A stretch of DNA of 64,000 bases, from IMG/VR virus record IMGVR_UViG_3300045988_141150. The stretch is one strand, 5' to 3'. Origin of the DNA: a virus. Below the pieces are notes generated by a model, which was not told the DNA's origin, did no database searches, and worked only from the letters and a program-made list of their open reading frames with translations. Both the position numbers and the translations under genes were made by a program. Below, in pieces: positions 4,801 to 63,152 of this stretch. How positions within the stretch are numbered: position 1 is the stretch's first letter; the number at the start of each line of letters is the position of its first letter.

Positions 4801-7800
4801 TCTTCAACCTCATATGAACCTCCATCAGTTAAACGGCCAAATACTGGCATATTTTCAGCTTTAGAATTTGTTGGAATAATATATTTAAATTCTTCATCTA
4901 AGCTTAAAGCAATAATTGGTCGATCTCCTAAAGCGGCATAACTATCAAGAAATACTGATGGATCAGTACGATACCATTTATCTACAATATCGCTCTTTTT
5001 AGCCCCTGCTCCTGCGCCTTTAGTAAAAATTTTATTTACTCTTGAATCATTTGGGCTATAAGAATTATTTTGAGTTCCCATTAATTGCTTATATTTATCT
5101 ACCATTTTATTCTTAAAGAAAGTATAAAAATTATTCCAAAGAACACTATCATTAGTCGAAAAACTTCCTTCTTCAGTAGCATCAATATAATATTCAAAAG
5201 ATGGGATACCGGTATTATTAATACCTAGTTGAGTATCAATATCATAAAAGATAGGATACCAAATATAATGCTATTTACCGGTAGATTTTTGAACATTGCC
5301 TTTTTGCGGACCCCAAGAAGCAAACATTGCATTTTTTCCACGAGAATCATAACATTCAAAAATTTCCGTCATCAAAAGATAAGAAGCCAAATATTCGATA
5401 TCAAAGAAATTACTTAATTCATTTTTAAATTTAGCTTGACGGTATTCTTTACTATCTTTAGTATAAGTAATAGAATCATAAGTTACTGGTTTAGGCAATC
5501 TCCATCTTTCATCAATAAGATCTTCATTTTTAACAAAAGAATAATAATCTAAAGAAGAATTAAATTTATCAGAACTTAATACATAAATTTCATTTTTACT
5601 ATCAACTAAAAGGTAGTAAGTATTTGTTTTATATACTTTACTCAAATCATTTGTAAGTTTTATACTTATATAATTTACTTTATTATTTTCATTAATCTAT
5701 TTATAATACCTTAATTCAGGATTATAATCTTCAGAAGCTAATTTATAAATAATTTTTCCATCTTTATTAACCCCATCTTCGATGTAATATTCATTAGGGG
5801 TGTATATAGCTGCTGCAAGTCCTTCAACTTTAGTATAAGTACCCATAGATTGAAGCTCTAATTTCTATCCATCCTCAAACTCAATCTTACCACAATCTAA
5901 ACAGGTACTCCATACCCAACTAACTGCATCTTCCCAGTTAGACATTAAAGCTAAGAGCAATTCTTGTTTACTTGTATTATTACCAACATTAAATTCTATT
6001 TCTTCTCCATCTGGATTTTTTATAATCCATTTAATAGATTTTACACCAGTAATTTCATCAATTATTTCTTTTTTAATAAGCCTATCAGGAGCTACATTTT
6101 TTAATTCTTCTCCAACAATCTTAGTCTATGTTCCATCTGGGTCATCCCAGTCTTTTAAATTAAATAACTATTCAGCAATTAAATCATCATTTGGATTATA
6201 TCTTGGTTCAAAAGAATCAACAACTTTTGGAGCGCCTTTAACTAATTCAGGATTATCTCCATCTGGAGGAATTACCATATTAGGATTCCTAAATGATAAT
6301 TTATAACGATTCCAAGGGTCGCGGAAAGAACAATATGTTCTTGAATTATTCTAAAATTCCCAACATTCAGCAATATCTCTTACTTTTGGAGTTCCATTAA
6401 TTTGATTCTATAAAACCTTTTTATCAGGCTTAAATCCATAGCATTCATCTGACCCTTTGTCTAATAGCATATTATATTTACCAATAAAAATACAATTACT
6501 GCTATTTTCTTTAGAATATGTATTATCATCATTAGACATATAATGGAAAGCTAAAACTGGGAATCCTTTCACTGAAGTACGATAATCTTCTAAATTTCCA
6601 TATAAATTATAATTATCAAAAGAATCTTTATAATCTTCTACGGGATGTTTAGAATAAATTTCATTAACTAAATTAGCAAACCCTCTATTATAATCTCCTG
6701 AAGATTCCATAAAATCTATTTTTAAAGTAAACTTAGTAGTACCAACTGTTTTATTATCCATATAAAACCATTCTAAATAACAAGGATGTTTAGTTATATC
6801 TTCATTATACTAATCTCCTGCTTTTTTATAAGCCTCAGCAAATGGGCCTCTATTTAAAAGCATTGATTTTTTACATTTAGCCTTATAATTACGACGAGGA
6901 TAAAATTGTGAAGAAGTGCCTTGGACTTGAAAAGTACATCCATTAAGAACAGTTATAAAACTAGGGCAATGATGTATATAATAATTCTATACAGCAGTAT
7001 ATTTTATTGTTTCTATCCCAGTCTCTTTATTTTTTTCAATTACAGGTTTCCATCCTTCTTTTATAGCAACTTTTTCTAATTCGCCACTATTATAAGCAGC
7101 ATCTAAAGCCGTATTAACAAATTCTAAAGTTCCTTCCTAACTTCCTTTTGCTTTAGAATAAGGTAATCTATTATCTGTGTTGTTTTTATTATTTTTAGTA
7201 GTTCTTAAAATAATATAAGGCATTAAAGGATCAGTAGGATGATTATCATTATACTTTTTCATTTTAGTATAAGAGAATACATCATCTTTTAATACCGTGT
7301 TATTCTCGTAAAGGTCTTTTTGATCCCATTGTTTTATACTTCTTTTATCAAAAGCATAATTTTGGACTATTTCAGGAATAGTTAAATCTGTATCATAAAC
7401 TCTAATACTATAAATATCAATATCACAAGTATTAGACATAAATTTAATGGAATCAGAATCAATATTCCAAACATCACTATTACAACGTACAACACTAGTT
7501 AAAACGCCATTCATAAAAATTTCTAATAATTTAGAATTTCCGCCTTCTATATCGCTTTTCTTTTTAGTATAAACAAATGAAAGATTTAGCATTTCATTTT
7601 CAATAAAATCAACTGAAACTGTTTCTTGAGCGCCATTAGCCGTAAATACAGCATCCTATGGACTAAAATAAATACCAGGAGAAACGGAACTTCCTAATTT
7701 ACCATACACACAAACTAAATTCTTTAAATTAAAATCTTGTTCTATTTTATTATACTCTAAATCATCATAACTATAATTAGTTGTCGGTAAATATTCTTTA

Positions 7801-9756: not shown

Positions 9757-11418
9757 TTAGAATGTTCCCCACTCTAGCTCAAAATTAACTTTAGCATCAT
9801 CAGTCTTAGTTGCCGCGGAAACATTAACCTTTAGACTATTACTTGCGAAAACAAGCGGTTTACCTTCAAGAACAGCACCCGCAACTTTAAGATTAGGAAT
9901 TAAAGTATTAGTACCATTTACCGTATAATCTGCATTAGCAATTTCTTGATGAGTATTTTTTACAGTAAAAGTTTTTTGAGTAGATTTAATTACATGCCCT
10001 TGAGCATCAATTTCAGTTGGCTCATTAATAGTAATAGTTTGTTCATCAGCATAAGATTGAGAAACTGGATCATTTACAGTTAAAGTATTACTATGTTTAA
10101 TAGTAACAACTTTAGAATTAGTAGGTTGACCTTTTGAATCTGTTAAAACTTCTGTTTCTAAAACAATACCACTTTCACCATGAAGAGCATAATCTAAAAG
10201 TTTTCTGGTAGACCCAAGTTTAATAATAAAACCAGCAGTACTATTATCATTGGCTCCTTCAATTTCAGTAACAGGATCATTAGCAGAAGGAACATAAGTC
10301 CAATTAATAGTACCAGTAATAACGCCATTAACCTCTTCCCCAGAAGCAATAATTAAATCACCAGGGCGTAAATAATGACCATTCCAAAGAGTATCTTCAG
10401 CTCCAGTATAAATAAAGGTATTACCTTCAGTAATTTCAGCAATATCAGAATTATCATAGGCAATAGCTCCATCTTTAACTTGGAATCCGCCACGGAATAC
10501 CATAGCATTAATAGTTCTAAGTTGATTATCAATATCTTGCTTACTATAAACAGGAAGAGTTAAAACACCATCTTTAAATTTGTAGCTACCAGTTTTACCT
10601 TCTAAAGCAATTTCCGGATCAATATCAGCAGATAAAGTTGTATTATTACCAGCCCCTTGAACACCAGGACCACTAATAGAAGCAGTAAAACCAGTACCAG
10701 TAGCATGATTAGCTACATCAATACTATCAACAGCTTTATTTACACTTAAAGTATAATTTCCAGTAGAAGTTTCAGCAATATTAACATTACTACCGGCGGT
10801 AATATTAAAATTACCTGCACCAGTATCGCCATTATTTAAATTAACATTTAAAGTTTTTTCGTTTAAAGAAGAATTTAATTGATAATTAATTCCTTTTAAA
10901 CTCAATTTAACAGTGTCTACACCGTTATCACCAATAGCAGGAACTGCTTCAATTTGGATATAATCGCTACCTATAATATCATAAGTTTCAGTAATAATAT
11001 TACCACTACTATCAGCAATAGTATTAGTTATAGAAGCTCCATTAGGTCTTTCAGGATTGTTATTTACTGATACATTACTATTCTCTTTTCTAGTATCTAA
11101 AACAGTATCAGTATTAGTTTGAATCCAATTTTTACCATTATTGATACATAAAATATTTTTATCTTTTATATAATAAAATTCGCCAGCAGTATTTTGGTTA
11201 AAACTTTGAGGTAAATCTGCGGTAGTATCAACTACATTAATGCCTTGATTTACAGGGACGCAATTATTTTCATCTACACCATAATAAAGACGGCTTGGTT
11301 TTTTATAGTCTTCGGCGGACTTATTGTCATTAATTACTAAATAAAACGCACCAGGTTTATATCTACCTGCCACCTTTTCAAATTCGGCTTGAGAGCCTTT
11401 TAAAAACTTAACGTTCAA
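9757..11418 (-). CDS. tail fibre / receptor-binding-like protein (553 aa), TAG-free
   Basis: intact ORF; TTG start with GGAGTG RBS 7 nt upstream; TAA stop; Gly/Asn/Thr-rich repetitive beta-type sequence typical of fibres. Confidence 0.6.
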   Translation of the reverse strand: MNVKFLKGSQAEFEKVAGRYKPGAFYLVINDNKSAEDYKKPSRLYYGVDENNCVPVNQGINVVDTTADLPQSFNQNTAGEFYYIKDKNILCINNGKNWIQTNTDTVLDTRKENSNVSVNNNPERPNGASITNTIADSSGNIITETYDIIGSDYIQIEAVPAIGDNGVDTVKLSLKGINYQLNSSLNEKTLNVNLNNGDTGAGNFNITAGSNVNIAETSTGNYTLSVNKAVDSIDVANHATGTGFTASISGPGVQGAGNNTTLSADIDPEIALEGKTGSYKFKDGVLTLPVYSKQDIDNQLRTINAMVFRGGFQVKDGAIAYDNSDIAEITEGNTFIYTGAEDTLWNGHYLRPGDLIIASGEEVNGVITGTINWTYVPSANDPVTEIEGANDNSTAGFIIKLGSTRKLLDYALHGESGIVLETEVLTDSKGQPTNSKVVTIKHSNTLTVNDPVSQSYADEQTITINEPTEIDAQGHVIKSTQKTFTVKNTHQEIANADYTVNGTNTLIPNLKVAGAVLEGKPLVFASNSLKVNVSAATKTDDAKVNFELEWGTF

Positions 11419-11432
11419 TTTTTTTCACTCCT

Positions 11433-12014
11433 TTAAATATCAGCCCAAGAAACAGTTTGTTCAACCGCTTCAACACGAGTTACCAAATTATCAGGACCCT
11501 TATCTACTAAATATTTATTAGCTATACTAATTGTTTCAATATCTCCCTAAGTTAATGTTCCTACTGGCATATCAATCCATGTACCAGCATCAGTGAGGAT
11601 ATGTTTTCCTTTAGTTTCATGCAAAGAAACTGGAACTAAACCTGGAACTCTACCCTTAAAAACAGGAGCTAATTTAGCTAAATTTTCTTCTGTAGATAAT
11701 TTTTCAACAATAGAATTAATTAAAGTCTCATTATTTTCTAAACTCTAATTAACCCATTTTTTTTGTTCTTCATTATAAGTTAAAACTTGATTTGTCTTAA
11801 CTTCATTGAGGACAATATCGCTTAAATCACTTAACTTACCTGCGGAACTAATTCCACCACAAATTAGACGACTACCTAAATAAAGTTCTCCAGAAGAATC
11901 ATTTTCCCCATAAATAAAATATAAAGTATCATTGTCTCTTTTTGTTCCTAAACTTTCAAAAGCAGTTTTAGAACCTCTGACAAATTTTACATATTTATTT
12001 AATGTATTAGGCAA
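11433..12014 (-). CDS. hypothetical virion protein (about 193 aa, 3 in-frame TAG)
   Basis: TTG start at 12014 with GGAAGGAG RBS; frame followed by hand through TAGs to TAA at about 11433. Confidence 0.45.
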
Positions 12015-47488: not shown

Positions 47489-48544
47489 TTAAGATTTTTT
47501 GGCCTTAGAATTTCGACAACTTTTACAAATACTATAAAAGCCATCTTTACTTGTTTTATTTTTACTAAAATATTTATTGTGAGCTAATTTTATTTTGCCA
47601 CAACGACTACATTTTTTATATTTACCTTTTTCAACATTTAAATAATAATTATCTAAGTATTCATCTTCCGCAGTCGAAGCAATTAATTTTGGAATTTTAT
47701 TACGCCATAAACTTGAAATATATTCAAGGCTGTGCTTAATACCAAATTCCATTTGTATTTTCTCTTGAATGTCAATATTTTGTAAACCATCAATTTTATA
47801 TTCAACGATTCTATCATAAAGAGGATAATTAGCTAAAGCTTTATCACAAAGTTTATCAAAATCCTCCATTAAATACCATAAATCTTTATCATATTCGCCC
47901 CAACTATCTTGCTTTAATCGGGAATAATTACATAAAATCGCAGAACATATCTCAGGTCTTAATAAACTAATTCCATCAGGAATGGGAAAACCATCATCAT
48001 CAAAAATAAATGTTTCATCATCTAATGGAATATAAGACTTTGATCTGGTTAATTTTGTAGGCACTATTGGACGACGATAAGCATTTTTTATAACATACTA
48101 ATCTTTACGCATTTCAATAAGAGCCTTTTTAATAACAAAAGCATCTTTACCTTCTGTTACTTTTAATTTAGCCTCCCAAACATTAATGGCTTCTCTTAAC
48201 TAATTTAAACTTGGTATCTCTTCTAAATCTTTTTTTGTAATTGTAATATGTGGTTGAAATATTGTATTTCTATTATCTGTAATTAAATTATAAATTCCAT
48301 CTTCGCCATTTTCGAGTTGGGAAACAAGACCTTCAAAAGAAGTCTCACGTTTATTAACTGTAGCCATACGATTATCAGTTAATAATTTTTTCTCCTTTTT
48401 TTCTTGTTTCTCCATACAAAGAACCAAATAGTCTGCTAAAATTTCTAAATACTTTTCAGGCGGATCTGGATTATCAGCCAAAATTTGTTCGACTAATTGA
48501 TTTCTTTCTTCTGGAGTTTGTAAAGAATAATCAAGTTTTATCAT
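47489..48544 (-). CDS. first late-operon protein (351 aa if both TAG are read through; 114 aa if TAG terminates), C-terminal zinc ribbon
   Basis: ATG at 48544 with GGAGG RBS; TAG at codon 115 (48200) and a second TAG (48098); same frame continues into ORF 47489..48064; TAA stop. Confidence 0.5.
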
Positions 48545-48568
48545 TTTTTACCTCCAGTCTATGTTTAT

Positions 48569-48597
48569 ATTATACTCGAAAAAATTTTTTTTGTCAA
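48569..48597 (-). promoter_or_regulatory. sigma70/sigmaA consensus promoter for the late operon
   Basis: minus-strand TTGACA (48592-97), 17-nt spacer, TATAAT (48569-74), about 20 nt upstream of the RBS and ATG of gene 47489..48544. Confidence 0.55.
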
Positions 48598-48679
48598 GTT
48601 TCATTTAAAAATTTTTCTTTTTATATTTAAAAATTTTTTTAACAAAACAAATAACTTTTGCCCAATCACGCCCTACGAT

Positions 48680-48708
48680 TTGACATTTTTTATTTTTTAT
48701 TTTATTAT
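48680..48708 (+). promoter_or_regulatory. promoter for the first plus-strand gene
   Basis: TTGACA-17-TATTAT. Confidence 0.4.
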
Positions 48709-48736
48709 TATTATAAGAAAAAGAAAAGGAGTATTT

Positions 48737-49129
48737 ATGGAAATTATTTTTATTGTATTATTGAGTTGTGCGTTAGTAGTATCCCTCCTTTTTTTATGGT
48801 TATACAGAAAAGCCTTTTGGGTATTATACCAAAAAATGGCAAATCAGCAAAAAGAATTAAATAAATGGCCAATCGCGCAATATGAGTGTATGTTATTATT
48901 AAATATATTTTATAATTATGACTTTGAGGGAAGAGCAGTAGATTTTTCGCGATATGAAACGCAAGGACTAATTGTTTATAATTGTTTTCATGAAGCGAAA
49001 AATAGTCCAAAAGGAATTACAAATGATGGAATTGTTTCATCATTTTATAAACAAGCATTTGTATATGAATTAGATGATGGAACATTTGAATGGGAGGATA
49101 TTGAAAATGGGTCGGAACCAGCCTTTTGA
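48737..49129 (+). CDS. small membrane protein (131 aa)
   Basis: ATG with AAAGGAG RBS; N-terminal transmembrane helix; standard code; AT-rich. Confidence 0.55.
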   Translation: MEIIFIVLLSCALVVSLLFLWLYRKAFWVLYQKMANQQKELNKWPIAQYECMLLLNIFYNYDFEGRAVDFSRYETQGLIVYNCFHEAKNSPKGITNDGIVSSFYKQAFVYELDDGTFEWEDIENGSEPAF

Positions 49130-49502
49130 AGTAAGAGGAATAGATGCGGTAATATTTAGATTAGAACAAGAATATTCTAACGCAACAAGAGATAAAGATC
49201 CTTTTGTAAGAGATTGGAAATTATTTAAAACAATACGTATTGAGAAAAAGGATAATGGGTCAAGAACAATTACTTACAGACCTTTATCAGACGCGGAAAA
49301 GGCTCAATTAAGCACCAAAGAAGAACAAGAAGAATATCAGTTAAACAAATACAAATATGTATTAGAGCACTTAATGGAAAAATATGATATAAATACTATT
49401 AATAGATATATTGATAGTTGTAAATATAAAGATAAATTAATTGAATATATTGAGAAAAAATTAAATGCGGAAACCACTCAGCCCTTTGAAGGCAATTGCT
49501 AA
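49107..49502 (+). CDS. hypothetical protein (131 aa)
   Basis: ATG at 49107 with GGAGG RBS; overlaps the end of the upstream gene. Confidence 0.5.
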   Translation: MGRNQPFEVRGIDAVIFRLEQEYSNATRDKDPFVRDWKLFKTIRIEKKDNGSRTITYRPLSDAEKAQLSTKEEQEEYQLNKYKYVLEHLMEKYDINTINRYIDSCKYKDKLIEYIEKKLNAETTQPFEGNC

Positions 49503-49596
49503 AAAGTGTCAGCAGAAAGTCACTTATTCTGTTACTTCTGGATTATACACTCTTATGCAGGGTGAGAAACCTAAAAGAGGTAGAAAAAAGAAATCA

Positions 49597-49707
49597 TGAT
49601 TTGAAATTAAAAATTGATTTGTTGTTTTAACCGTATTCTGAAATTGAAAATTGATTTAGATAAATTTAAATTATTCTTCGTGATTTGAAATTGAAAATTG
49701 ATTTAGA
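49597..49707. repeat. three iteron-like direct repeats (tgatttgaaattgaaaattgattt), spaced about 42-45 bp apart
   Basis: copies at about 49597, 49637 and 49682 in the non-coding stretch where GC content switches. Confidence 0.6.
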
Positions 49708-49739
49708 TTGCGTTTTGACCACGCAAAAGGAAAAACACA

Positions 49740-50079
49740 AATAAAAAAAAATTTTTTCCCGAAATACACCCCCGCCCTATAAGGTTCTAACTTGTTTATT
49801 CTCTGAGAGTATACCAGCCTTACTCTCGCTCTTTTGCGGAACGCAAGACCCCATCCCGCATAAATGCCCCGGTAAACGTTGCTCGGCTCGCTGGCGGTAG
49901 TGGCGAGCCGAGTTTTATAAAAATCAGCAGTTTGCACAAATTTCTCGCCGAAACTTCGTCATAATGCACAAACATCAAAATGCCCGAAACTACGCCATCA
50001 CATTTGGGTAAAATGACTATTGACAATCCAGTAGCCATGTGCTATACTTGTATCATCAAAAAGAAAGAGGTAAATCAAA
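49740..50079 (+). repeat. partial, diverged copy of the early intergenic cassette (TTTTTTCCC box, GC hairpin, GCACAAA box, promoter)
   Basis: hairpin gctcggctcgc..gcgagccgag (49881-49913) followed by gagtttt; ttgcacaaattt box; ttttttccc at 49751. Confidence 0.4.
50020..50048 (+). promoter_or_regulatory. consensus promoter
   Basis: TTGACA-17-TATACT with TG extension (tgtgcTATACT). Confidence 0.55.
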
Positions 50080-50445
50080 ATGAAGAACATTTCCAAAATC
50101 ATCACCATGGCCATTGCTATCATTCTCTCCGTGTCTTTCTTTGGCCCGTTCCACGACCACACAACCGCGGAAGCCTGTGAGGAAGCGCCCCAGTCCTACG
50201 ACCTCTCGGTCATTGAGAATTGGTGCGGTTCAGGCACGGAGCGCGGAAGTATCCGTTTCGTCGGCGCAGAGGTCTATGAGCGCGAGGGCGATACACTGAC
50301 GCTCATTGATGAGCAAGGCAATCTGTGGGACGTGGAAGCACTCAACATTGATGACAACGACTTCTTGCTCTTGTGGATTAACGACAATGACACTGACACT
50401 GTGGAAGATGATACAATCATTAAGGTATGGAGAGAGGCTTACTAA
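50080..50445 (+). CDS. secreted or membrane-anchored protein with an N-terminal signal peptide (121 aa)
   Basis: RBS AAGAGG; hydrophobic N-terminus MKNISKIITMAIAIILSVSFF; acidic. Confidence 0.55.
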   Translation: MKNISKIITMAIAIILSVSFFGPFHDHTTAEACEEAPQSYDLSVIENWCGSGTERGSIRFVGAEVYEREGDTLTLIDEQGNLWDVEALNIDDNDFLLLWINDNDTDTVEDDTIIKVWREAY

Positions 50446-50476
50446 GTCTCTCTCTTTCTTGCGGATCGGCGAAGAT

Positions 50477-50494
50477 TGTTAAAAAATTAACAAG
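50477..50494. promoter_or_regulatory. perfect 18-bp palindrome TTGTTAAAAAATTAACAA (candidate operator or activator site)
   Basis: centre lies 29.5 bp upstream of the -35 box at 50515; identical copy at 50899 with identical spacing. Confidence 0.45.
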
Positions 50495-50514
50495 CAAAGA
50501 AGAGTAAAAAACTC

Positions 50515-50543
50515 TTGACAAATGCGCAATGATGTGCTACAAT
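50515..50543 (+). promoter_or_regulatory. consensus promoter
   Basis: TTGACA-17-TACAAT (tgtgcTACAAT). Confidence 0.55.
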
Positions 50544-50573
50544 GTAGATACAATAAGAAAGGGGAATACTCAG

Positions 50574-50864
50574 ATGACTAATAAGAATTTTTATAATGCT
50601 CTCAAAGCAGAAAAGGAACGGTTGATGAACGAAAGCAAGCAGGCATCCCGCGACTGCCAGATTAAGCATGGTGAGATGTCAAAGGCATGGAACATTGTCA
50701 ATGCCCTTGAAAGCTTGGGTAAGTTTGGCACGCAGGAACTCAGCAACGCGTATGATAACTATGAGGAAGCCAGCTACGCAAGTATGTTAGCAGACAACCA
50801 CTTCGATGACATTGATGAAGCCATTGATAAGATAAATGGATTGATGGGTCTTTACGAAGAATAA
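50574..50864 (+). CDS. small acidic protein (96 aa)
   Basis: ATG with AAAGGGG RBS; TAA stop. Confidence 0.55.
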   Translation: MTNKNFYNALKAEKERLMNESKQASRDCQIKHGEMSKAWNIVNALESLGKFGTQELSNAYDNYEEASYASMLADNHFDDIDEAIDKINGLMGLYEE

Positions 50865-50888
50865 GGGAGCAGTAATGCTCCCTTTCTA
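50865..50888 (+). terminator. rho-independent terminator
   Basis: gggagc-agtaat-gctccc then ttt. Confidence 0.5.
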
Positions 50889-50898
50889 ACGGCGTAGA

Positions 50899-50916
50899 TT
50901 GTTAAAAAATTAACAA
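50899..50916. promoter_or_regulatory. second copy of the palindrome TTGTTAAAAAATTAACAA
   Basis: identical sequence; centre 29.5 bp upstream of the -35 box at 50937. Confidence 0.45.
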
Positions 50917-50936
50917 AGATTTTTCTCAAAAAGGTC

Positions 50937-50970
50937 TTGACAAATCAGTTAGAATGTGGTATTCTATAAT
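50937..50970 (+). promoter_or_regulatory. consensus promoter
   Basis: TTGACA-17-TATTCT overlapping TATAAT. Confidence 0.5.
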
Positions 50971-50994
50971 CACAAAGGGAAAGGGGAAAGAAAA

Positions 50995-51204
50995 ATGATT
51001 TATGGCATTGTTTATTATACTAAGGGCGGTCAGGGCTATCTCTTCCAGCAAGCGTTCGAAGAACAGCGCGCTATGGAGATTGCAGGTAAGATGAACGACT
51101 TACTCGCGACAGGTGCTACGATGTATAATGATAAGTCCTATGGCAAGCTCGACTTGCGGAACGTTGAGTATTTCACAGTTGAACCCAGTAGCGAAATGTA
51201 TTAA
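50995..51204 (+). CDS. small protein (69 aa)
   Basis: RBS AAAGGGGAAAG; TAA stop. Confidence 0.5.
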   Translation: MIYGIVYYTKGGQGYLFQQAFEEQRAMEIAGKMNDLLATGATMYNDKSYGKLDLRNVEYFTVEPSSEMY

Positions 51205-51208
51205 GGGC

Positions 51209-51236
51209 GGGAGCGGGCTCCCCGCTCTTTCTCTTG
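51209..51236 (+). terminator. rho-independent terminator
   Basis: gagcggg-ctcc-ccgctc followed by tttctctt. Confidence 0.5.
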
Positions 51237-51327
51237 CGCCGTGGGGCGCGTGTAGAGCGTCCCAGCCCGAACTTTATCACAGTAAAGCATTAAAGCAAAA
51301 TTTTTTCCATTTTTTGCCAAAAACCAC

Positions 51328-51356
51328 TTGACATTCCTATCCCGAAATGCTATAAT
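51328..51356 (+). promoter_or_regulatory. consensus promoter
   Basis: TTGACA-17-TATAAT (tgcTATAAT). Confidence 0.55.
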
Positions 51357-51389
51357 AGTATCATCAAAAGAAAGAAAGAGGTAAATCAA

Positions 51390-51512
51390 ATGTCTATTCA
51401 CGATGGTCTTGTTCTTCTCGCTATCTATGTTGGTGTTATCGGCGCGGGCGCGCTCATCGAATACGTGGAGCACCGCGTAAAGAGAGCGGTTCATCGCAGA
51501 AAGAGAAGTTGA
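51390..51512 (+). CDS. hydrophobic micro-protein (40 aa, single transmembrane helix with basic tail)
   Basis: RBS AAGAGG; MSIHDGLVLLAIYVGVIGAGALIEYVEHRVKRAVHRRKRS; below the ORF-track size cut-off. Confidence 0.4.
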   Translation: MSIHDGLVLLAIYVGVIGAGALIEYVEHRVKRAVHRRKRS

Positions 51513-51530
51513 AAAACTTCTCTTTTTTTA
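51502..51530 (+). terminator. rho-independent terminator
   Basis: agagaagtt-gaaaa-aacttctct then T7. Confidence 0.5.
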
Positions 51531-51540
51531 TAAAAAACAC

Positions 51541-51574
51541 TTGACAAATCCAACAGCCGGTGCTATACTATAAT
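51541..51574 (+). promoter_or_regulatory. consensus promoter driving a transcript of about 140 nt with no convincing ORF
   Basis: TTGACA-17-TATACT/TATAAT; transcript begins tTGTCAAGAGGGG. Confidence 0.5.
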
Positions 51575-51726
51575 TGTCAAGAGGGGAAGAGATAAGTTAC
51601 TTCCCAAAGGGTGTGTGGCAAGTAGCCATTTCCTTTGATAAAACGCTTAGTTGGAGCGACCAGACAGGGCGCGCACTGTCCGCAAAAGTAGAGAATAAAA
51701 AAATTCCAACTTCTCAAAAAAACCTC

Positions 51727-51755
51727 TTGACAGACCCCTTAGAGTGTGATACAAT
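51727..51755 (+). promoter_or_regulatory. consensus promoter flanked by the 9-bp inverted repeat CTCTTGACA ... TGTCAAGAG
   Basis: cCTCTTGACAgacccc..TACAAT..aTGTCAAGAGg. Confidence 0.5.
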
Positions 51756-51759
51756 AAGG

Positions 51760-51813
51760 ATGTCAAGAGGCAGACAGGAGCGAACAACCTCTCCCCAATG
51801 CGTAGTTGGGTGA
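51760..51813 (+). CDS. leaderless micro-ORF MSRGRQERTTSPQCVVG (17 aa)
   Basis: ATG 5 nt after the -10 box with no RBS; one of a family beginning MS(R/G)G. Confidence 0.25.
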   Translation: MSRGRQERTTSPQCVVG

Positions 51814-51859
51814 AGTAAAACAAAATCTCCCTACCGAACAAAAAAGTTCAAAAAACCTC

Positions 51860-51888
51860 TTGACAAACCCCTTAGAGTGTGATACAAT
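51860..51888 (+). promoter_or_regulatory. consensus promoter driving the tRNA-like RNA
   Basis: cCTCTTGACAaacccc-17-TACAAT. Confidence 0.5.
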
Positions 51889-51900
51889 AAGGGTACAGAT

Positions 51901-52012
51901 GGCGGTGAGGTAGAACGGTTCTACTTCCACAAAGATGGCTGAGATACAAAAGTGTCGCTCACTTGGAAACGTTCGCTATTGGAAAATGTGGGTTCAACTC
52001 CCACCACCGCCT
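51901..52012 (+). ncRNA. tRNA-like small RNA (about 112 nt): 7-bp acceptor stem, D-arm with GG, canonical TTCAACT T-arm, but an aberrant 34-nt anticodon region
   Basis: ggcggtg pairs with caccgcc; D-arm gtag-aacggtt-ctac; T-arm gtggg-ttcaact-cccac; own promoter; no ORF; stem ttcca/tggaa (25-29 with 64-68) encloses 34 nt; no CTA triplet in the loop. Confidence 0.35.
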
Positions 52013-52032
52013 CAAAATTTTTTGAAAAAACA

Positions 52033-52061
52033 CTTGACAAATCCAAAAGTAGATGTTATAA
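52033..52061 (+). promoter_or_regulatory. consensus promoter
   Basis: TTGACA-17-TATAAT (tgtTATAAT). Confidence 0.55.
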
Positions 52062-52093
52062 TGTAGATACAATAAGAAAGGGGATAAAAACCA

Positions 52094-52356
52094 TGACTAC
52101 TTACAACATTCTCACTATTGGCCCTTCTCGTGAACCGAAGCTCGCGGGCAAGTTCAACGTTGCGGATACTGAAAACTTCCTTGACCGGTTAGAGGAAACG
52201 CTCTACATTCTCTTTGAATTAGAGCCGAAATCCCGCGAATGGAAACGCGAATTTCTCAAACATCTTTTTGCGGAATTCACTTATCACTTTTGCGAAGATT
52301 CCCGCGTTGAAAAGCAAGGCAACAATATTATCGTTTATGAAGAAAATGAGGGCTGA
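52094..52356 (+). CDS. hypothetical protein (87 aa)
   Basis: RBS AAAGGGG; TGA stop. Confidence 0.55.
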
Positions 52357-52375
52357 AAAAGCCCTCATTTTTTTT
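52348..52375 (+). terminator. rho-independent terminator
   Basis: gagggct-gaaaaa-gccctc then T8. Confidence 0.55.
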
Positions 52376-52396
52376 CAAACTTTTTTCAAAAAACTA

Positions 52397-52428
52397 TTGA
52401 CATTTACTGCCCTAAGTGGTATTATAAT
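52397..52428 (+). promoter_or_regulatory. consensus promoter
   Basis: TTGACA-17-TATTAT/TATAAT. Confidence 0.55.
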
Positions 52429-52472
52429 ATCAGAAAGGGAAAGGAAAATCCCGAACACCAGAAAGGTTAGCT

Positions 52473-52664
52473 ATGGATACTTTCGAAATGTATTACGAGA
52501 AATTCATGAAGATGCGCAAGGCTGACATTATTCGCGAGGGTCAGACTTGGGATATTTGGGCAAACTGCCAAAGCACTGCCGATAGCCTGATGAAGTGGAC
52601 AAAGCCCGTTCTTGCGAGAGTTCTTGCTGGACGCCTGGACCGTTTGGAAAAGCGGGGCTACTAA
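52473..52664 (+). CDS. hypothetical protein (63 aa)
   Basis: RBS AAAGG; TAA stop. Confidence 0.5.
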   Translation: MDTFEMYYEKFMKMRKADIIREGQTWDIWANCQSTADSLMKWTKPVLARVLAGRLDRLEKRGY

Positions 52665-52680
52665 GCCCCGCTTCTTTCTT
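52650..52680 (+). terminator. rho-independent terminator
   Basis: aagcggggc-tacta-gccccgctt then ctttctt. Confidence 0.5.
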
Positions 52681-52691
52681 GAAAAAAGTTC

Positions 52692-52720
52692 TTGACAAAT
52701 CTCGAATCTATGGTATAATA
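52692..52720 (+). promoter_or_regulatory. consensus promoter
   Basis: TTGACA-17-(tgg)TATAAT. Confidence 0.55.
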
Positions 52721-52749
52721 AGAGTATAAAAGGAAAGGGGATAAACAAA

Positions 52750-52989
52750 ATGACTTTGGACATGATTAAAAATGTAATTGGCACGGTAAAAGGCGCGCTG
52801 ATGTTCTATGAGGGGAATGGCGTCGAAGTGATAAACGAAAACACTTGCGGTCGCTATCTCAAAGACCGCAAAGGTCGCATGACTTTGAATGGTGATGTGT
52901 TAGACGCAAGCGAAGAGTGGGTGCTGGGATTGCCGGTCAGCGATTTGAAAGCCAGAGATAACGTTCTCATTATTTATGTTGATGGCTAA
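52750..52989 (+). CDS. hypothetical protein (79 aa)
   Basis: RBS AAAGGGG; TAA stop. Confidence 0.5.
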   Translation: MTLDMIKNVIGTVKGALMFYEGNGVEVINENTCGRYLKDRKGRMTLNGDVLDASEEWVLGLPVSDLKARDNVLIIYVDG

Positions 52990-53004
52990 AATTAAATTTT
53001 TTGA

Positions 53005-53250
53005 ATTAAAAATCTCCCCAAAAATGGGGAGATTTTTTTGTACATTTTATCTATTGACAATCCCAAAACTTCATGGTATAATCGGCCGGCGCGCGAACGG
53101 ACCTGGCGCGCCGAGTTTTTGTCAATAGGCGGGTTGCACAAATTTTTGGGGCAAATCTTTGTGCATAATGTCAATAGACAGAATCCCGAATTGGTGCTAT
53201 ACTATAATCACAGTAAGGGAAGGAAAACCTACCAAACCGGAAAGGGATAA
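53005..53250 (+). repeat. early intergenic cassette, short type: terminator, promoter P1, GC hairpin plus T-tract, GCACAAA box, promoter P2
   Basis: terminator 53009-53040; P1 TTGACA 53045 with TATAAT 53068; hairpin cggcgcgc..gcgcgccg 53078-53104 then agttttt; P2 TAGACA-17-TATACT 53166-53194. Confidence 0.6.
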
Positions 53251-53254
53251 CAAC

Positions 53255-53563
53255 ATGATTAACATTCGTTCTATTCTCAAACTCGCTGAAAATGACGGTC
53301 TGACCCTCAAACATGGCAAGAAGGTCAATTACAAGTCCGGCTGGCAGGTCGCCACTAATGGCGTTGAATGTAAGACCGCCCGCGAAGCCATTAACGCGGT
53401 CAAGGAATATGGCGGCAACTGCGGCGTGTGGTTTGCGAACGGCATTTATTATGTTGACAAGTCCAAGAGGGTGCAGACCAAGAAGCAGGCGCTTGAAATC
53501 GGCAAGGCGTGCAACCAAATCAGTGTATATGGCTGGGCGCGCGGCAATCTGGCTTACTGCTAA
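53255..53563 (+). CDS. hypothetical protein (102 aa)
   Basis: true start at the internal ATG 53255 with AAAGGGA RBS; TAA stop. Confidence 0.5.
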   Translation: MINIRSILKLAENDGLTLKHGKKVNYKSGWQVATNGVECKTAREAINAVKEYGGNCGVWFANGIYYVDKSKRVQTKKQALEIGKACNQISVYGWARGNLAYC

Positions 53564-53573
53564 AAAATTAAAT

Positions 53574-53609
53574 AGAGGGCTTGACAAAACAAGCCCTCTA
53601 TGCTATAAT
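53574..53609 (+). promoter_or_regulatory. promoter whose -35 box sits in the loop of a 7-bp hairpin (agagggc-TTGACAAAACAA-gccctct)
   Basis: TTGACA 53581-86, 17-nt spacer, TATAAT 53604-09. Confidence 0.5.
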
Positions 53610-53641
53610 AAAGGCACAATAAAGGAAAGGGAGAAAACAAC

Positions 53642-53911
53642 ATGGAAATTAAATATGCTCACGAAATGGCGGCTATCGCTAAGGACATCCGCACCGCCAA
53701 GCGCGCCAAAGATACTGCTACGGCCCGCGCCTATCTTGAAGAAAACCTGATGAAAGATATTGAAGACCACGCGGAAAAAGGCGAGAATTATCTGTCTCGC
53801 TGTCTCGTTGCCATTGAAGATGAAGCCGTGAAAGAAGCCTTAAAAAATCTTTTGCGGAATTATGGCTATACAACTTCTTATTCAAACGGCGTTCTCACCG
53901 TAAGGTGGTAA
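53642..53911 (+). CDS. hypothetical protein (89 aa)
   Basis: RBS AAAGGGAG; TAA stop. Confidence 0.55.
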   Translation: MEIKYAHEMAAIAKDIRTAKRAKDTATARAYLEENLMKDIEDHAEKGENYLSRCLVAIEDEAVKEALKNLLRNYGYTTSYSNGVLTVRW

Positions 53912-53916
53912 GGTAA

Positions 53917-53946
53917 AAGAGGGAAAATTTTTCCCTCTTTTTCTAA
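53917..53946 (+). terminator. rho-independent terminator
   Basis: agagggaaaa-ttttt-ccctcttt then ttc. Confidence 0.5.
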
Positions 53947-53954
53947 AAAACTTC

Positions 53955-53983
53955 TTGACAAATCCAAAAGCAGATGTTATAAT
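53955..53983 (+). promoter_or_regulatory. consensus promoter
   Basis: TTGACA-17-TATAAT. Confidence 0.55.
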
Positions 53984-54015
53984 AAAAGCACAATAAAGGA
54001 AAGGGGAATAAATTA

Positions 54016-54729: not shown

Positions 54730-54798
54730 ATGTCAAGAGGAAGTGGTAAGCCTCTTGAAGTAGTGAACAAATTTCTCATACTATGGTTTGCGCGGTAG
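54730..54798 (+). CDS. leaderless micro-ORF MSRGSGKPLEVVNKFLILWFAR (22 aa) that ends in TAG
   Basis: ATG immediately after the -10 box; one of only two early-region reading frames terminated by TAG. Confidence 0.25.
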   Translation: MSRGSGKPLEVVNKFLILWFAR

Positions 54799-54830
54799 CC
54801 GATAATTACCGCGCCCTTTCTATTTCATTT

Positions 54831-54848
54831 TTGTTAAAATTTTAACAA
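54831..54848. promoter_or_regulatory. third palindrome TTGTTAAAATTTTAACAA (variant of the 50477 and 50899 site)
   Basis: perfect 18-bp palindrome; same half-site TTGTTAAAA. Confidence 0.35.
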
Positions 54849-56535: not shown

Positions 56536-56757
56536 ATGAAAAATCACCCAATTTGGGTGATTTTTTTTGTTTACTTTCACTATTGACAAAGTTCCTTGAA
56601 TGTGATAAAATCGTCGGCGCGCGGACGATTGTGGCGCGCCGAGTTTTTTGTCAAGAGGTAAGTTCAACAAATTTTCGCACGAATTTTTGTGTAAAATGCC
56701 AATAGACAAAAATCCTATAATGTGGTAAGATGTATACAACAAATAGAGGGGGCTAAA
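56536..56757 (+). repeat. early intergenic cassette, short type (terminator, P1, GC hairpin plus T-tract, GCACGAA box, P2)
   Basis: terminator 56540-68; P1 TTGACA 56583 with TAAAAT 56606; hairpin cggcgcgc..gcgcgccg 56615-41 then agtttttt; P2 TAGACA-17-TAAGAT 56703-31; same stem sequence as the copy at 53078. Confidence 0.6.
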
Positions 56758-58573: not shown

Positions 58574-58811
58574 AATTTGAGGTGAAAATTCACCTCATTT
58601 TTTTGGTTATTTTGCCTATTGACAAAAATCCAATAGTGTGATAAAATGGCCGGCCGTTTACGTATGCCACGGCCGGAACTTCAATTATACCAGAAGCCAG
58701 CAAATTTGTCAATCGGCAAAATGCACAAAAATCTAATTAGTTTTTTTCCCAAAATGTGCTTGACAAAATCCAGCAGATGCGCTATAATGTATTTAGAAAG
58801 AGGTGAAAAAC
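58574..58811 (+). repeat. early intergenic cassette, long type: terminator, P1, GC hairpin, reverse promoter, GCACAAA box, TTTTTTCCC box, P2
   Basis: terminator 58576-58606; P1 TTGACA 58619 with TAAAAT 58642; hairpin ccggccg..cggccgg 58650-76; reverse promoter 58684-58712; P2 58760-58788. Confidence 0.6.
58684..58712 (-). promoter_or_regulatory. reverse-strand perfect consensus promoter converging on P1 across the hairpin
   Basis: plus strand ATTATA-17-TGTCAA; the predicted minus transcript is hairpin plus UUUUAU (about 40 nt). Confidence 0.5.
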
Positions 58812-60215: not shown

Positions 60216-60451
60216 AAGAAAATCTCCCCAAAAATGGGGAGATTTTTTTGTTTACTTTGACTATTGACAAAGTTCCTTGAATGTGATATAATGGGCCGGC
60301 CGTTTCCGCGCGCTACGGCCGGAATTCACCATTATACACCCTGCCAGCATTTTTGTCAAGAGAAATTTCGCACAAATTTCAATTTTATTTTTTCCCGTTA
60401 TTTGGTCATTTTACCAATAGACAAATCAAGACCAATCTGTTATACTACATA
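60216..60451 (+). repeat. early intergenic cassette, long type; its terminator is identical to the one at 53009..53040
   Basis: terminator 60219-50; P1 60264-92; hairpin ccggccg..cggccgg 60296-60322; reverse promoter 60331-59; P2 TAGACA-17-TATACT 60418-46. Confidence 0.6.
60331..60359 (-). promoter_or_regulatory. reverse-strand consensus promoter
   Basis: plus strand ATTATA-17-TGTCAA. Confidence 0.5.
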
Positions 60452-60571
60452 ATGTCAGGAGGAAAGAGTAAGACCTACGGAAAGGCAGTTCCCTTGACCA
60501 TTATACCAGAAGCCGACACAAGGAATGTTCCAAGCGTGGCATGCCGAACAAACTTTCAAAAAAAAGTTTGA
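60452..60571 (+). CDS. leaderless micro-ORF MSGGKSKTYGKAVPLTIIPEADTRNVPSVACRTNFQKKV (39 aa)
   Basis: ATG 5 nt after the -10 box; related in sequence to the micro-ORF at 62767. Confidence 0.3.
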   Translation: MSGGKSKTYGKAVPLTIIPEADTRNVPSVACRTNFQKKV

Positions 60572-60579
60572 AAAACCCC

Positions 60580-60608
60580 TTGACAAACCGCTCGACTTAT
60601 GGTATAAT
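60580..60608 (+). promoter_or_regulatory. consensus promoter
   Basis: TTGACA-17-(tgg)TATAAT. Confidence 0.55.
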
Positions 60609-62520: not shown

Positions 62521-62766
62521 GCTGGAATAAATAAAAAACTGCCCAAAAATGGGCAGTTTTTTTTTGTCTATTTTGCCTATTGACAAATGCGGATTTTTGT
62601 GATAAAATGGTCGGCCCGCTAACGCCCAAAGCGGGCCGAACTCACCATTATACCACGCCCCGCCAATTTTGTCAAGAGAAAAGTTGCACAAAAATGAAAA
62701 AAATTTTTTCCCGTAATTTGGCTATTCTGTCAATTGTATTCTGTGGGCAATCTGCTATAATAGATA
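62521..62766 (+). repeat. early intergenic cassette, long type
   Basis: terminator 62536-66; P1 TTGACA 62579 with TAAAAT 62602; hairpin tcggcccgc..gcgggccga 62610-38; reverse promoter 62646-74; TTTTTTCCC box; P2 with extended -10 tgcTATAAT 62756-61. Confidence 0.6.
62646..62674 (-). promoter_or_regulatory. reverse-strand consensus promoter
   Basis: plus strand ATTATA-17-TGTCAA. Confidence 0.5.
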
Positions 62767-62865
62767 ATGTCAGGAGGGAACAGTGAATTGCCGAACGGCT
62801 TCGCTGATGGGTGTGATAACTCGGTAACTGACCCGTTTTCAAAGAAATTTGAAATTCCCTCTTGA
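62767..62865 (+). CDS. leaderless micro-ORF MSGGNSELPNGFADGCDNSVTDPFSKKFEIPS (32 aa)
   Basis: ATG 6 nt after the -10 box; related to the micro-ORF at 60452. Confidence 0.3.
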   Translation: MSGGNSELPNGFADGCDNSVTDPFSKKFEIPS

Positions 62866-62890
62866 CAAACCCCTGCGAGTGTGCTACAAT
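62862..62890 (+). promoter_or_regulatory. consensus promoter flanked by the inverted repeat CTCTTGACA ... TGTCAAGAG
   Basis: TTGACA-17-TACAAT; aTGTCAAGAGgg at the start site. Confidence 0.5.
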
Positions 62891-62895
62891 AGAAA

Positions 62896-63009
62896 ATGTC
62901 AAGAGGGAGTAGCCCAAGAAATCCGAGGGCGCGCGACCTTGAGAAAGTACAGGAAGTAAACATAATACACCACGTTGTAAAGCCAAACGTTGAACGCGAA
63001 AGTGAGTGA
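62896..63009 (+). CDS. leaderless micro-ORF MSRGSSPRNPRARDLEKVQEVNIIHHVVKPNVERESE (37 aa); alternatively the 5' end of a small RNA
   Basis: ATG 5 nt after the -10 box; followed by about 90 nt of structured non-coding sequence. Confidence 0.25.
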   Translation: MSRGSSPRNPRARDLEKVQEVNIIHHVVKPNVERESE

Positions 63010-63123
63010 GAGTGAGCCAGCTATACTTGAAGCGATTTTCGCTGACAGATAGACTGAGCCAACGGGCAATACCTTATCCGTCAGGTCGGGGTAGTAATTC
63101 GTGTAAAAAGTTTGCGAAACCTC

Positions 63124-63152
63124 TTGACAAACATTTCAAAGTGTGGTACACT
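63124..63152 (+). promoter_or_regulatory. promoter
   Basis: cTCTTGACAaac-17-(tgg)TACACT. Confidence 0.45.

Follow-up and report, generated by a model that had tools for sequence, protein, structure and literature searches.

A non-coding early cassette of a large gut phage with tandem promoters, predicted transcript starts complementary to the next -35 region, and a putative tRNA-like RNA gene

Introduction

Tandem promoters that are read by the host polymerase and serve one downstream unit are familiar from the A1, A2, and A3 early promoters of phage T7 and from the P1-P2 pair of ribosomal RNA (rRNA) operons. Here, we describe an array of this general type in a 64,000-nucleotide (nt) stretch of the IMG/VR virus record IMGVR_UViG_3300045988_141150 (hereafter, the window), which represents a portion of a large phage genome. 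The segment at 51541-52030 of the window is an early, non-coding cassette from a phage whose hosts are Gram-positive gut bacteria; in it, three promoters, separated by two spacer units (U1 and U2), lead to what appears to be a transfer RNA (tRNA)-like RNA gene. As with the T7 and rRNA promoters, the three promoters share one orientation, lie ~100-190 base pairs (bp) apart with no genes between them, and precede a shared early unit. They differ in that the predicted product of this unit is a small tRNA-like RNA and in that the spacers are swapped as modules between relatives. The first two promoters are also predicted to give transcripts whose 5′ ends are complementary to the -35 region of the next promoter, and we know of no such feature for the T7 or rRNA promoters.

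The closest described parallels to this complementarity are the 5′ stem-loop stabilizers of the Escherichia coli ompA, Bacillus subtilis aprE, and T7 gene 10 leaders, in which a helix 0-1 nt from the 5′ end is known to block pyrophosphate removal and the entry of 5′ exonucleases (PMC3997798). The phage helix likewise lies within 0-1 nt of the predicted 5′ end, but its 3′ strand is up to ~220 nt away and doubles as a -35 box, its 5′ strand is a fixed sequence common to many unrelated phages, and stabilization is here a prediction. The Stab-SD element of cryIIIA and the SP82 stabilizer (both cited in PMC3997798) resemble the phage transcripts in having a Shine-Dalgarno-like purine run near the 5′ end that does not start translation; unlike theirs, the phage run is predicted to be paired, and the UGUC that flanks it is equally conserved.

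The tRNA-like RNA can be compared with tRNA (RF00005) and with look-alikes of tRNA that do not serve translation, namely tRNA-Other of Bacillus cereus (PMC3399842), the tRNA-like domain of transfer-messenger RNA (tmRNA), and the bacterial Y RNA YrlA (PMC4201824). It shares with them a 7-bp acceptor stem that holds both termini, a D arm with GG, a T arm with UUC..A, a CCA end in some members, and, in one phage group, a location in a tRNA array. Two additional helices, a terminal hairpin, and an internal loop that hardly varies occupy the site of the tRNA anticodon loop, and position 8 is A rather than U; the RNA has neither the G3-U70 pair nor the tag reading frame of tmRNA, and, unlike in YrlA, its ends do not lie in the long arm. 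Two features of this locus were not found described: a helix between the 5′ end and the next -35 box that is common in gut phage promoter arrays, and a conserved tRNA-like RNA with an extended arm.

Three tandem promoters and a helix between predicted transcript start and next -35 box

All features described here lie on the plus strand unless stated otherwise. Promoter 1 (51541-51569, TTGACA-17-TATACT), promoter 2 (51727-51755, TTGACA-17-TACAAT), and promoter 3 (51860-51888, TTGACA-17-TACAAT) are present where an initial annotation of the sequence had placed them, and each matches the sigma-70/sigma-A consensus at 11 of 12 positions and carries a TG extension. The start-to-start distances are 186 and 133 bp, and promoters 2 and 3 are 43-nt copies of each other with 98% identity. 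With their recognizable hexamers and 17-bp spacing, single orientation, and absence of a conserved open reading frame (ORF) between members, the three have the sequence attributes of a tandem sigma-A array. They belong to a plus-strand early block that is dense in near-consensus TTGACA-17-TATAAT promoters with a TG extension; we counted 87 promoter-like sites between 48 and 64 kb, compared to 33 expected, and 21 of these were perfect (12/12). The only terminator-like match between the promoters is weak (51615-29) and lies inside a longer hairpin. The annotation had also described each promoter as driving a unit with no real gene. This holds for U1 and U2, which contain no conserved ORF, and not for the third unit, in which the predicted transcript start of promoter 3 lies 5-7 nt ahead of the tRNA-like gene at 51901-52012.

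The predicted transcript starts in this region share a motif. ATGTCARGAGG occurs at 51760, 54730, 60452, 62767, and 62896, exactly the five positions that had been listed for it, whereas 0.06 occurrences would be expected and none of 100 shuffles reached five. The 10-mer without the leading A has two further sites, at 51575 (after promoter 1) and 56649, and six of the seven copies begin 5-6 nt past a -10 hexamer, which is where transcription is predicted to start. Scanning a viral contig collection for a promoter followed by TGTCARGAGG recovered at least 120 loci, at which the motif heads three kinds of transcript: messenger RNAs (mRNAs) with a true ribosome site 30-60 nt further on, tRNA genes, and ORF-free spacers. 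Among 122 unique motif promoters (the collected loci plus those of the window), the base ahead of TGTCA is A in 44, G in 38, T in 31, and C in 9. A literature search for the 10-mer returned unrelated primer matches only.

The initial annotation had noticed an inverted repeat at 51727 and 62862 and had interpreted it as a bracket around the promoter core. The repeat is real: its arms, CCTCTTGACA and TGTCAAGAGG, are 10 nt long and 100% complementary around promoter 2, the same repeat surrounds the promoter at 62862, and promoter 1, as had been pointed out, has the right arm alone. The arms had, however, been paired wrongly. CTC precedes a promoter's own -35 box in 13.1% of motif promoters and in 12.5% of other promoters, so the two arms that flank a single promoter do not form a unit. 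What the transcript start, UGUCAAGAGG, does complement is CCUCUUGACA, the extended -35 region of the next promoter downstream, which is carried on the same transcript and consists of the -35 box and the four bases upstream of it. Because each start pairs with the next -35 region, the first promoter of an array has only a right arm (promoter 1 has no CCTC ahead of its -35 box), the last has only a left arm (promoter 3), and a middle promoter has both. We also considered an antisense promoter formed by the reversed -35 sequence at the start site and rejected it, as the -10 hexamer that it would need reads TCTAAG.

Folding of the units in the window was consistent with this pairing. U1 (51575-51732) contains three hairpins within a closed stem-loop domain that is non-coding. 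Its TGTCAAGAGG sequence starts 5 nt past the -10 hexamer, and closing helix 1 joins 51575-84 to 51723-32, the 3′ arm being CCTCTTGACA from the extended -35 region of promoter 2; the arms pair with a probability of 0.81-1.00. When folded with its partner arm (51575-51734), U1 reached -51.7 kcal/mol and a z score of -4.4, compared to -1.5 without the partner. U2 (51761-51865) consists of arms around an internal hairpin and a conserved UGAAGURAAA block and is closed by helix 2, between 51761-70 and the extended -35 region of promoter 3 at 51856-65 (z = -4.8 when 51761-51867 was folded, -1.0 without the partner). A second array shows the same arrangement. Its first unit (62768-62867) pairs TGTCAGGAGG at 62768-77 with CCTCTTGACA at 62858-67, from the -35 region of the 62862 promoter, with one G-U pair (z = -6.7 for 62768-62869), and its next unit (62897-63129, z = -3.2), which is kept in contigs L082, L031, and L065, pairs TGTCAAGAGG at 62897-906 with CCTCTTGACA at 63120-29, from the -35 region of the promoter at 63124. 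The probability of the terminal helix was ~1.0 in these units when the partner arm was included, and without it z scores were -1.5 to -0.5. The unit at 60453-60585 starts with TGTCAGGAGG and is closed by CCCCTTGACA of the 60580 promoter with 9 of 10 pairs. At 54731-54758, the motif is closed by a local complement rather than by a promoter, UCAAGAGG pairing with CCUCUUGA to form a 5′-terminal hairpin that sits on the leader of the ORF at 54848. In relaxed Rfam searches of 51300-52100, no credible family was found for U1 or U2.

The association holds across all loci collected, well beyond the window. We defined a tandem pair as a motif-bearing promoter followed by another promoter within 40-260 nt, and after de-duplication the second promoter carried CTC at its -35 region in 32 of 52 such pairs, compared to 25 of 200 motif-less controls (Fisher p = 3e-12). 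When spacers were clustered by content into independent families, 22 of 33 families had the full 10-bp closing helix. The two strands also covary: the variant start TGTCAAGGGG occurs with the compensatory partner CCCCTTGACA seven times, and several G-U variants were seen in addition. Where no promoter lies downstream, at least 7 of the 10 motif nucleotides are paired locally in 60% of 108 distinct cases, compared to 22% of shuffles. Pairing is predicted from the first or second base of the motif, 5-6 nt after the -10 hexamer, which is the position expected of a 5′-terminal stem-loop stabilizer. The same design recurs ahead of homologues of the tRNA-like gene. In viral contig L001, a promoter with the TGTCAAGAGG motif is followed by a spacer, a promoter with a CCTC-extended -35 region, and the gene; in L167, the variant TGTCAAGGGG is matched by a CCCC-extended -35 region in the same order. 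L183 and L165 share the design. In phAss-1, the nearest deposited genome, a three-promoter array of this design stands ahead of a protein gene.

A proposed role for the helix and its alternatives

We propose that the three near-consensus sigma-A promoters are all directed at the one tRNA-like gene (51901-52012). Transcripts from promoters 1 and 2 would begin with UGUCAAGAGG and, ~100-150 nt further on, would contain CCUCUUGACA, and pairing of the two 10-mers would close the spacer and leave no free 5′ end. As the helix begins at nucleotide 1 or 2, no single-stranded 5′ end would be exposed, and a 10-bp helix is too short for a typical RNase III site. In B. subtilis, the pyrophosphohydrolase RppH acts only on 5′ ends with two or more unpaired nucleotides, RNase J1 starts from a 5′ end that is free and monophosphorylated, and 5′ stem-loops such as that of the aprE leader stabilize transcripts (PMC3997798). 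A paired 5′ end would be expected to block 5′-end-dependent decay by RppH and the exonuclease activity of RNase J1, protected read-through transcripts from all three promoters would add to the yield of tRNA-like RNA, and the RNA would be released by RNase P and 3′ processing in the fashion of a tRNA. In this arrangement, the -35 box, being transcribed from the upstream promoter, would gain a second role as the pairing partner that hides the 5′ end. Such a helix would account for a start-site motif common to more than 100 uncultured gut phage contigs and, if the proposal is correct, would provide a simple rule for designing transcripts that are stable in Gram-positive hosts. We lean slightly toward the model as a whole, from tandem promoters through a protective 5′-end helix to a summed yield of tRNA-like RNA.

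Several points weigh against the model. We infer the start sites, the read-through, and the RNA half-lives; 11 of the 33 spacer families are not fully closed; and there is no canonical terminator between the tRNA-like gene and the 87-amino-acid (aa) gene downstream, so the transcription unit may extend into the latter. If protection were all that mattered, any paired 5′ sequence would do, and a fixed -35 partner explains only in part why UGUCARGAGG is so strictly kept in at least 120 contigs. Finally, U1 and U2 carry a few compensatory changes of their own and may be more than spacers.

This last point leads to the possibility that U1 and U2 are separate genes for small RNAs with functions of their own, for example as regulators or decoys, in which the closing helix defines or protects the ends or marks a processing site for release. 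Homologues of U2 are present in eight other viral contigs and in the metagenome contig L165; its hairpin covaries (CCCAA/UUGGG vs. CACGA/UCGUG), its UGAAGURAAA block is conserved, and in the other phages the family precedes protein genes rather than a tRNA-like gene. A hairpin of U1 has one compensatory change in L165. The units are also shuffled as modules, U2 being missing from the close relative L183 while L165 has an extra closed RNA of ~85 nt, and there are more ORF-free, promoter-driven units in the early region. On the other side, neither U1 nor U2 ends in a terminator, the spacers are mostly unrelated among the 33 families and have only the closing arms in common, the thermodynamic signal is weak once the closing arm is removed (z = -1.5 and -1.0), and the covariation is thin, with two to three lineages per unit. 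We consider independent functions for U1 and U2 rather unlikely. The initial annotation had suggested small RNAs for all three units; this is firm for the third, a conserved and covarying tRNA-like RNA, and for U1 and U2 it holds in the form of structured, closed leader domains.

The purine-rich AAGAGG/AGGAGG part of the motif could alternatively act as a stabilizer of the Stab-SD or SP82 polypurine type, in which a 30S subunit bound close to the 5′ end keeps RNase J1 out and no translation starts, a mechanism known in Bacillus (references in PMC3997798). The variable position of the motif keeps its likeness to a Shine-Dalgarno sequence (A in 74 and G in 48 promoters), a purine follows it in 105 of 122, the phage's own genes have GAAAGAGG and AAAGGGG ribosome sites, and motif-led transcripts are non-coding or have long untranslated 5′ parts. 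Against this, the motif is predicted to be paired (~1.0 in the window units) and hence inaccessible, the equally strict UGUC is left unexplained, and the covarying partner is evidence of a helix. A stabilizer of this type seems improbable to us.

We also weighed DNA-level explanations, in which the arms would be an operator pair for a DNA-looping dimer or the inverted repeats at the ends of a promoter cassette that can invert or move. Perfect 10-bp inverted repeats do adjoin the promoters, the cassettes are mosaic between relatives, and promoters 2 and 3 are duplicates. The arms that flank one promoter are, however, found together no more often than by chance, which also counts against the earlier suggestion of promoter-flanking protein-binding sites and against an inverton or operator; the arms that are statistically linked are separated by 54-222 bp and show no helical phasing (Rayleigh p = 0.88), and homologous units are found in one orientation only. 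The lack of phasing, the tolerance of G-U-type variants, and the fact that a non-promoter complement near the 5′ end does the same job where no promoter follows favor an RNA helix, and we regard a DNA site as very improbable.

That the units instead encode leaderless micro-proteins starting with MS(R/G)G, as had also been suggested, is scarcely credible: five ATG-led ORFs of 17-39 aa beginning MSRG or MSGG do exist and begin within a few bases of the predicted transcript start, but ATG is present in just 36% of the 122 motif promoters (the remainder having GTG, TTG, or CTG), tRNA transcripts are headed by the motif as well, the ORFs of motif units range from 5 to 150 aa with the longest extending into downstream sequence, a 2-nt indel upstream of the kept nucleotide blocks of U2 (window vs. 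L037) puts these blocks into different frames, and ORFs in the family of the 62897 unit are 37, 18, 23, or 29 aa long with ATG or TTG starts, so neither the 5′ AUG nor the frame nor the peptide expected of a leaderless mRNA is conserved. The ATG within the motif is incidental. There is an annotation lesson in this region: an ORF caller would list a spurious 79-aa ORF across units 1 and 2 (51574-51813, TTG start, spanning U1, promoter 2, and U2), which is an artifact, since its C terminus differs in L183, where U2 is missing, and ARAGORN passes over the tRNA-like gene.

A tRNA-like RNA downstream of the array

The tRNA-like RNA gene (51901-52012) scored 37 bits with the Rfam tRNA model (gathering threshold, 29), with an insert of ~50 nt in place of the 7-nt anticodon loop, and ARAGORN reported no tRNA at these positions. 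The acceptor stem (51901-07 with 52005-11) has 7 bp, which are 100% paired, and five of the seven pairs covary. Between the D arm (51910-24) and the T arm (51988-52004) stands a long arm (51925-51984), built from an outer stem (51925-29/51980-84), a 5-nt bulge, an inner stem (51935-39/51975-79), an internal loop formed by UGAGAUAC (51940-47) and GGAAACGUUC (51965-74), and a terminal hairpin (51950-64).

Homologues were retrieved by a pattern drawn from the insert. The one in viral contig L001 has 85% identity and the same promoter ahead of it; in ~20 phage contigs of ~150 kb, the homologue lies inside a tRNA array, ~370 nt from a skipping-rope RNA; and others were found in metagenome contigs L152, L160, L165, and L167 and in the metagenome-assembled genomes L181 and L183. 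These amount to eleven distinct sequences from approximately six gut-phage sequence lineages, with one shared structure, whose long arm has outer and inner stems of 5 bp each with a bulge of 5-7 nt between them, then the internal loop, and finally a hairpin of 4-5 bp. When these sequences are aligned, 93.8% of the cells are paired and both partners change in 16 of the 31 pairs, a result that none of 500 shuffles reached; with slid partners, pairing was 44-52%. The internal loop UGAGAUAC/GGAAACGUUC is nearly invariant, an impression biased by retrieval with an insert pattern, and a search anchored elsewhere found one variant of it, CUAAGAUAC. Most members have NUCGCWN as the 7-nt terminal loop, and the loop of L152, CUCAUUA, resembles a methionine anticodon loop. 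CCA is encoded after the discriminator base in some members. The tRNA array of L017, from the ~150-kb group, contains the skipping-rope RNA (RF02924, 77.9 bits) and a 92-nt tRNA that is oversized between its D and T arms (4669-4748, 5354-5445).

The RNA does not fit a described class. It has the acceptor, D, and T arms of a true tRNA and, where the anticodon loop would be, the structured insert. As a tmRNA it scored 16.8 bits against a gathering threshold of 47, its third acceptor pair is C-G or A-U, and 112 nt leave no room for a tag frame. We rejected three further candidates: an amber suppressor tRNA, as no loop holds a conserved CUA; an intron-containing tRNA, judged from sequence alone, as there is no bulge-helix-bulge, a group I intron would be much longer than the insert, and the residual bulge is not a conserved anticodon loop; and a self-cleaving ribozyme, as CUGAGAU does not match the hammerhead core CUGANGA and no Rfam ribozyme matches. 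Rfam 15 holds no family for the RNA, and at gathering thresholds Rfam found only tRNAs in 14 related loci. A covariance model of the RNA, run over 975 kb of collected loci, recovered ordinary tRNAs and no further members; a DNA search of deposited phages with the gene alone gave just T-arm matches to phage tRNA-Met genes; and no description of a tRNA-like phage RNA with an extended anticodon arm turned up in the literature searched. The complement of the conserved GGAAACGUUC block is not in excess elsewhere in the window. Taken together, the alignment and searches indicate that the RNA is the product of a conserved, previously uncatalogued gene that annotation has missed.

A broader proposal is that the early region is an arsenal of promoter-driven non-coding RNA modules with a new class of tRNA mimic as its centerpiece, which could engage a tRNA-directed host factor as a decoy or adaptor (the factor being an anticodon nuclease, for example, or some other defense or translation factor), and that the helix between 5′ end and -35 box is a general packaging and stabilizing device. 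We offer this as a speculation and consider it rather unlikely. By keeping the tRNA body, the RNA might receive tRNA-type processing and perhaps a CCA tail, while the 60-nt arm would display, besides an anticodon-like hairpin, a conserved loop for binding protein or RNA. The RNA covaries strongly, is found in large gut phages, and in one group of them adjoins the orphan skipping-rope RNA; phage tRNA-like molecules are of current interest as possible counters to host defenses that target tRNA.

Genome setting and host

The cassette lies in the second of two contrasting blocks of the window. From position 1 to ~48.5 kb, genes are on the minus strand with 28-30% G+C, and from ~49 to 64 kb they are on the plus strand with ~43% G+C and the standard code; the G+C content shifts sharply at 48000-50000, and the sign of the GC skew flips at the same place. 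The late and structural genes of the minus-strand block (1-48500) have long ORFs only when TAG is read as a sense codon: with TAG read through, ORFs of at least 200 aa in this block total 17,470 aa, compared to 5,937 aa with the standard code. No tRNA, and hence no suppressor tRNA, was found within the 64-kb window.

The large terminase shares 45-47% identity with its counterparts in large Enterococcus and Geobacillus phages. The nearest deposited genome, phAss-1, belongs to a human gut phage that reassigns TAG to Gln, and Clostridia have been guessed as its hosts (PMC10607447). These terminase identities and the position of phAss-1 as nearest genome make it almost certain that the host is Gram-positive and belongs to the phylum Bacillota. 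Among deposited phages, DNA searches found no match to 50000-54000 and, with the array alone as query, only a 51-nt promoter match to phAss-1.

Mosaic organization of the early region

A 40-aa gene (51390-51512) and the 87-aa gene (52093-52356) flank the slot that holds the cassette, and this slot is mosaic. The 87-aa gene has its own promoter (52034-52062) and a strong terminator (52339-52375). Ten relatives (L141-L150) have none, one, or two small protein cassettes in the corresponding slot (51513-52092), each cassette with its own promoter and terminator. In L183, the slot reads promoter, U1, promoter, tRNA-like gene, and in L165 it reads U1, U2, the extra closed RNA of ~85 nt, and then the tRNA-like gene. 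From these comparisons, the early region is a patchwork of cassettes that can be swapped and that have promoter and terminator sequences as their boundaries. The extra RNA of L165 (GGGUGG...CCACCC; reverse strand, ~11290-11420) lies between the last promoter and the tRNA-like gene, and past the next promoter L165 has ~280 nt of ORF-free, GC-rich sequence (reverse strand, ~11560-11840); neither had an Rfam match.

The 54731-54847 leader combines the 5′ hairpin described above with a terminator-like hairpin with a U-rich tail (54790-54814) directly ahead of the 135-aa ORF at 54848, and it resembles an attenuator or a short RNA of its own. A module of ~150-250 bp is present in five copies, at 53054-53210, 56583-56740, 58619-58760, 60264-60450, and 62580-62765. 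It begins with a plus-strand promoter with the -10 sequence TGTGATAAAAT, followed by a GC-rich palindromic hairpin at the start site, and ends with an TTGCACAAA...TTTGTGCAA inverted repeat and then a weaker TAGACA promoter. In three of the five copies, a perfect minus-strand promoter stands face-to-face with the first, ~65 bp away (62675-62647, 60359-60331, and 58712-58684). The module is also present in phAss-1 and other relatives.

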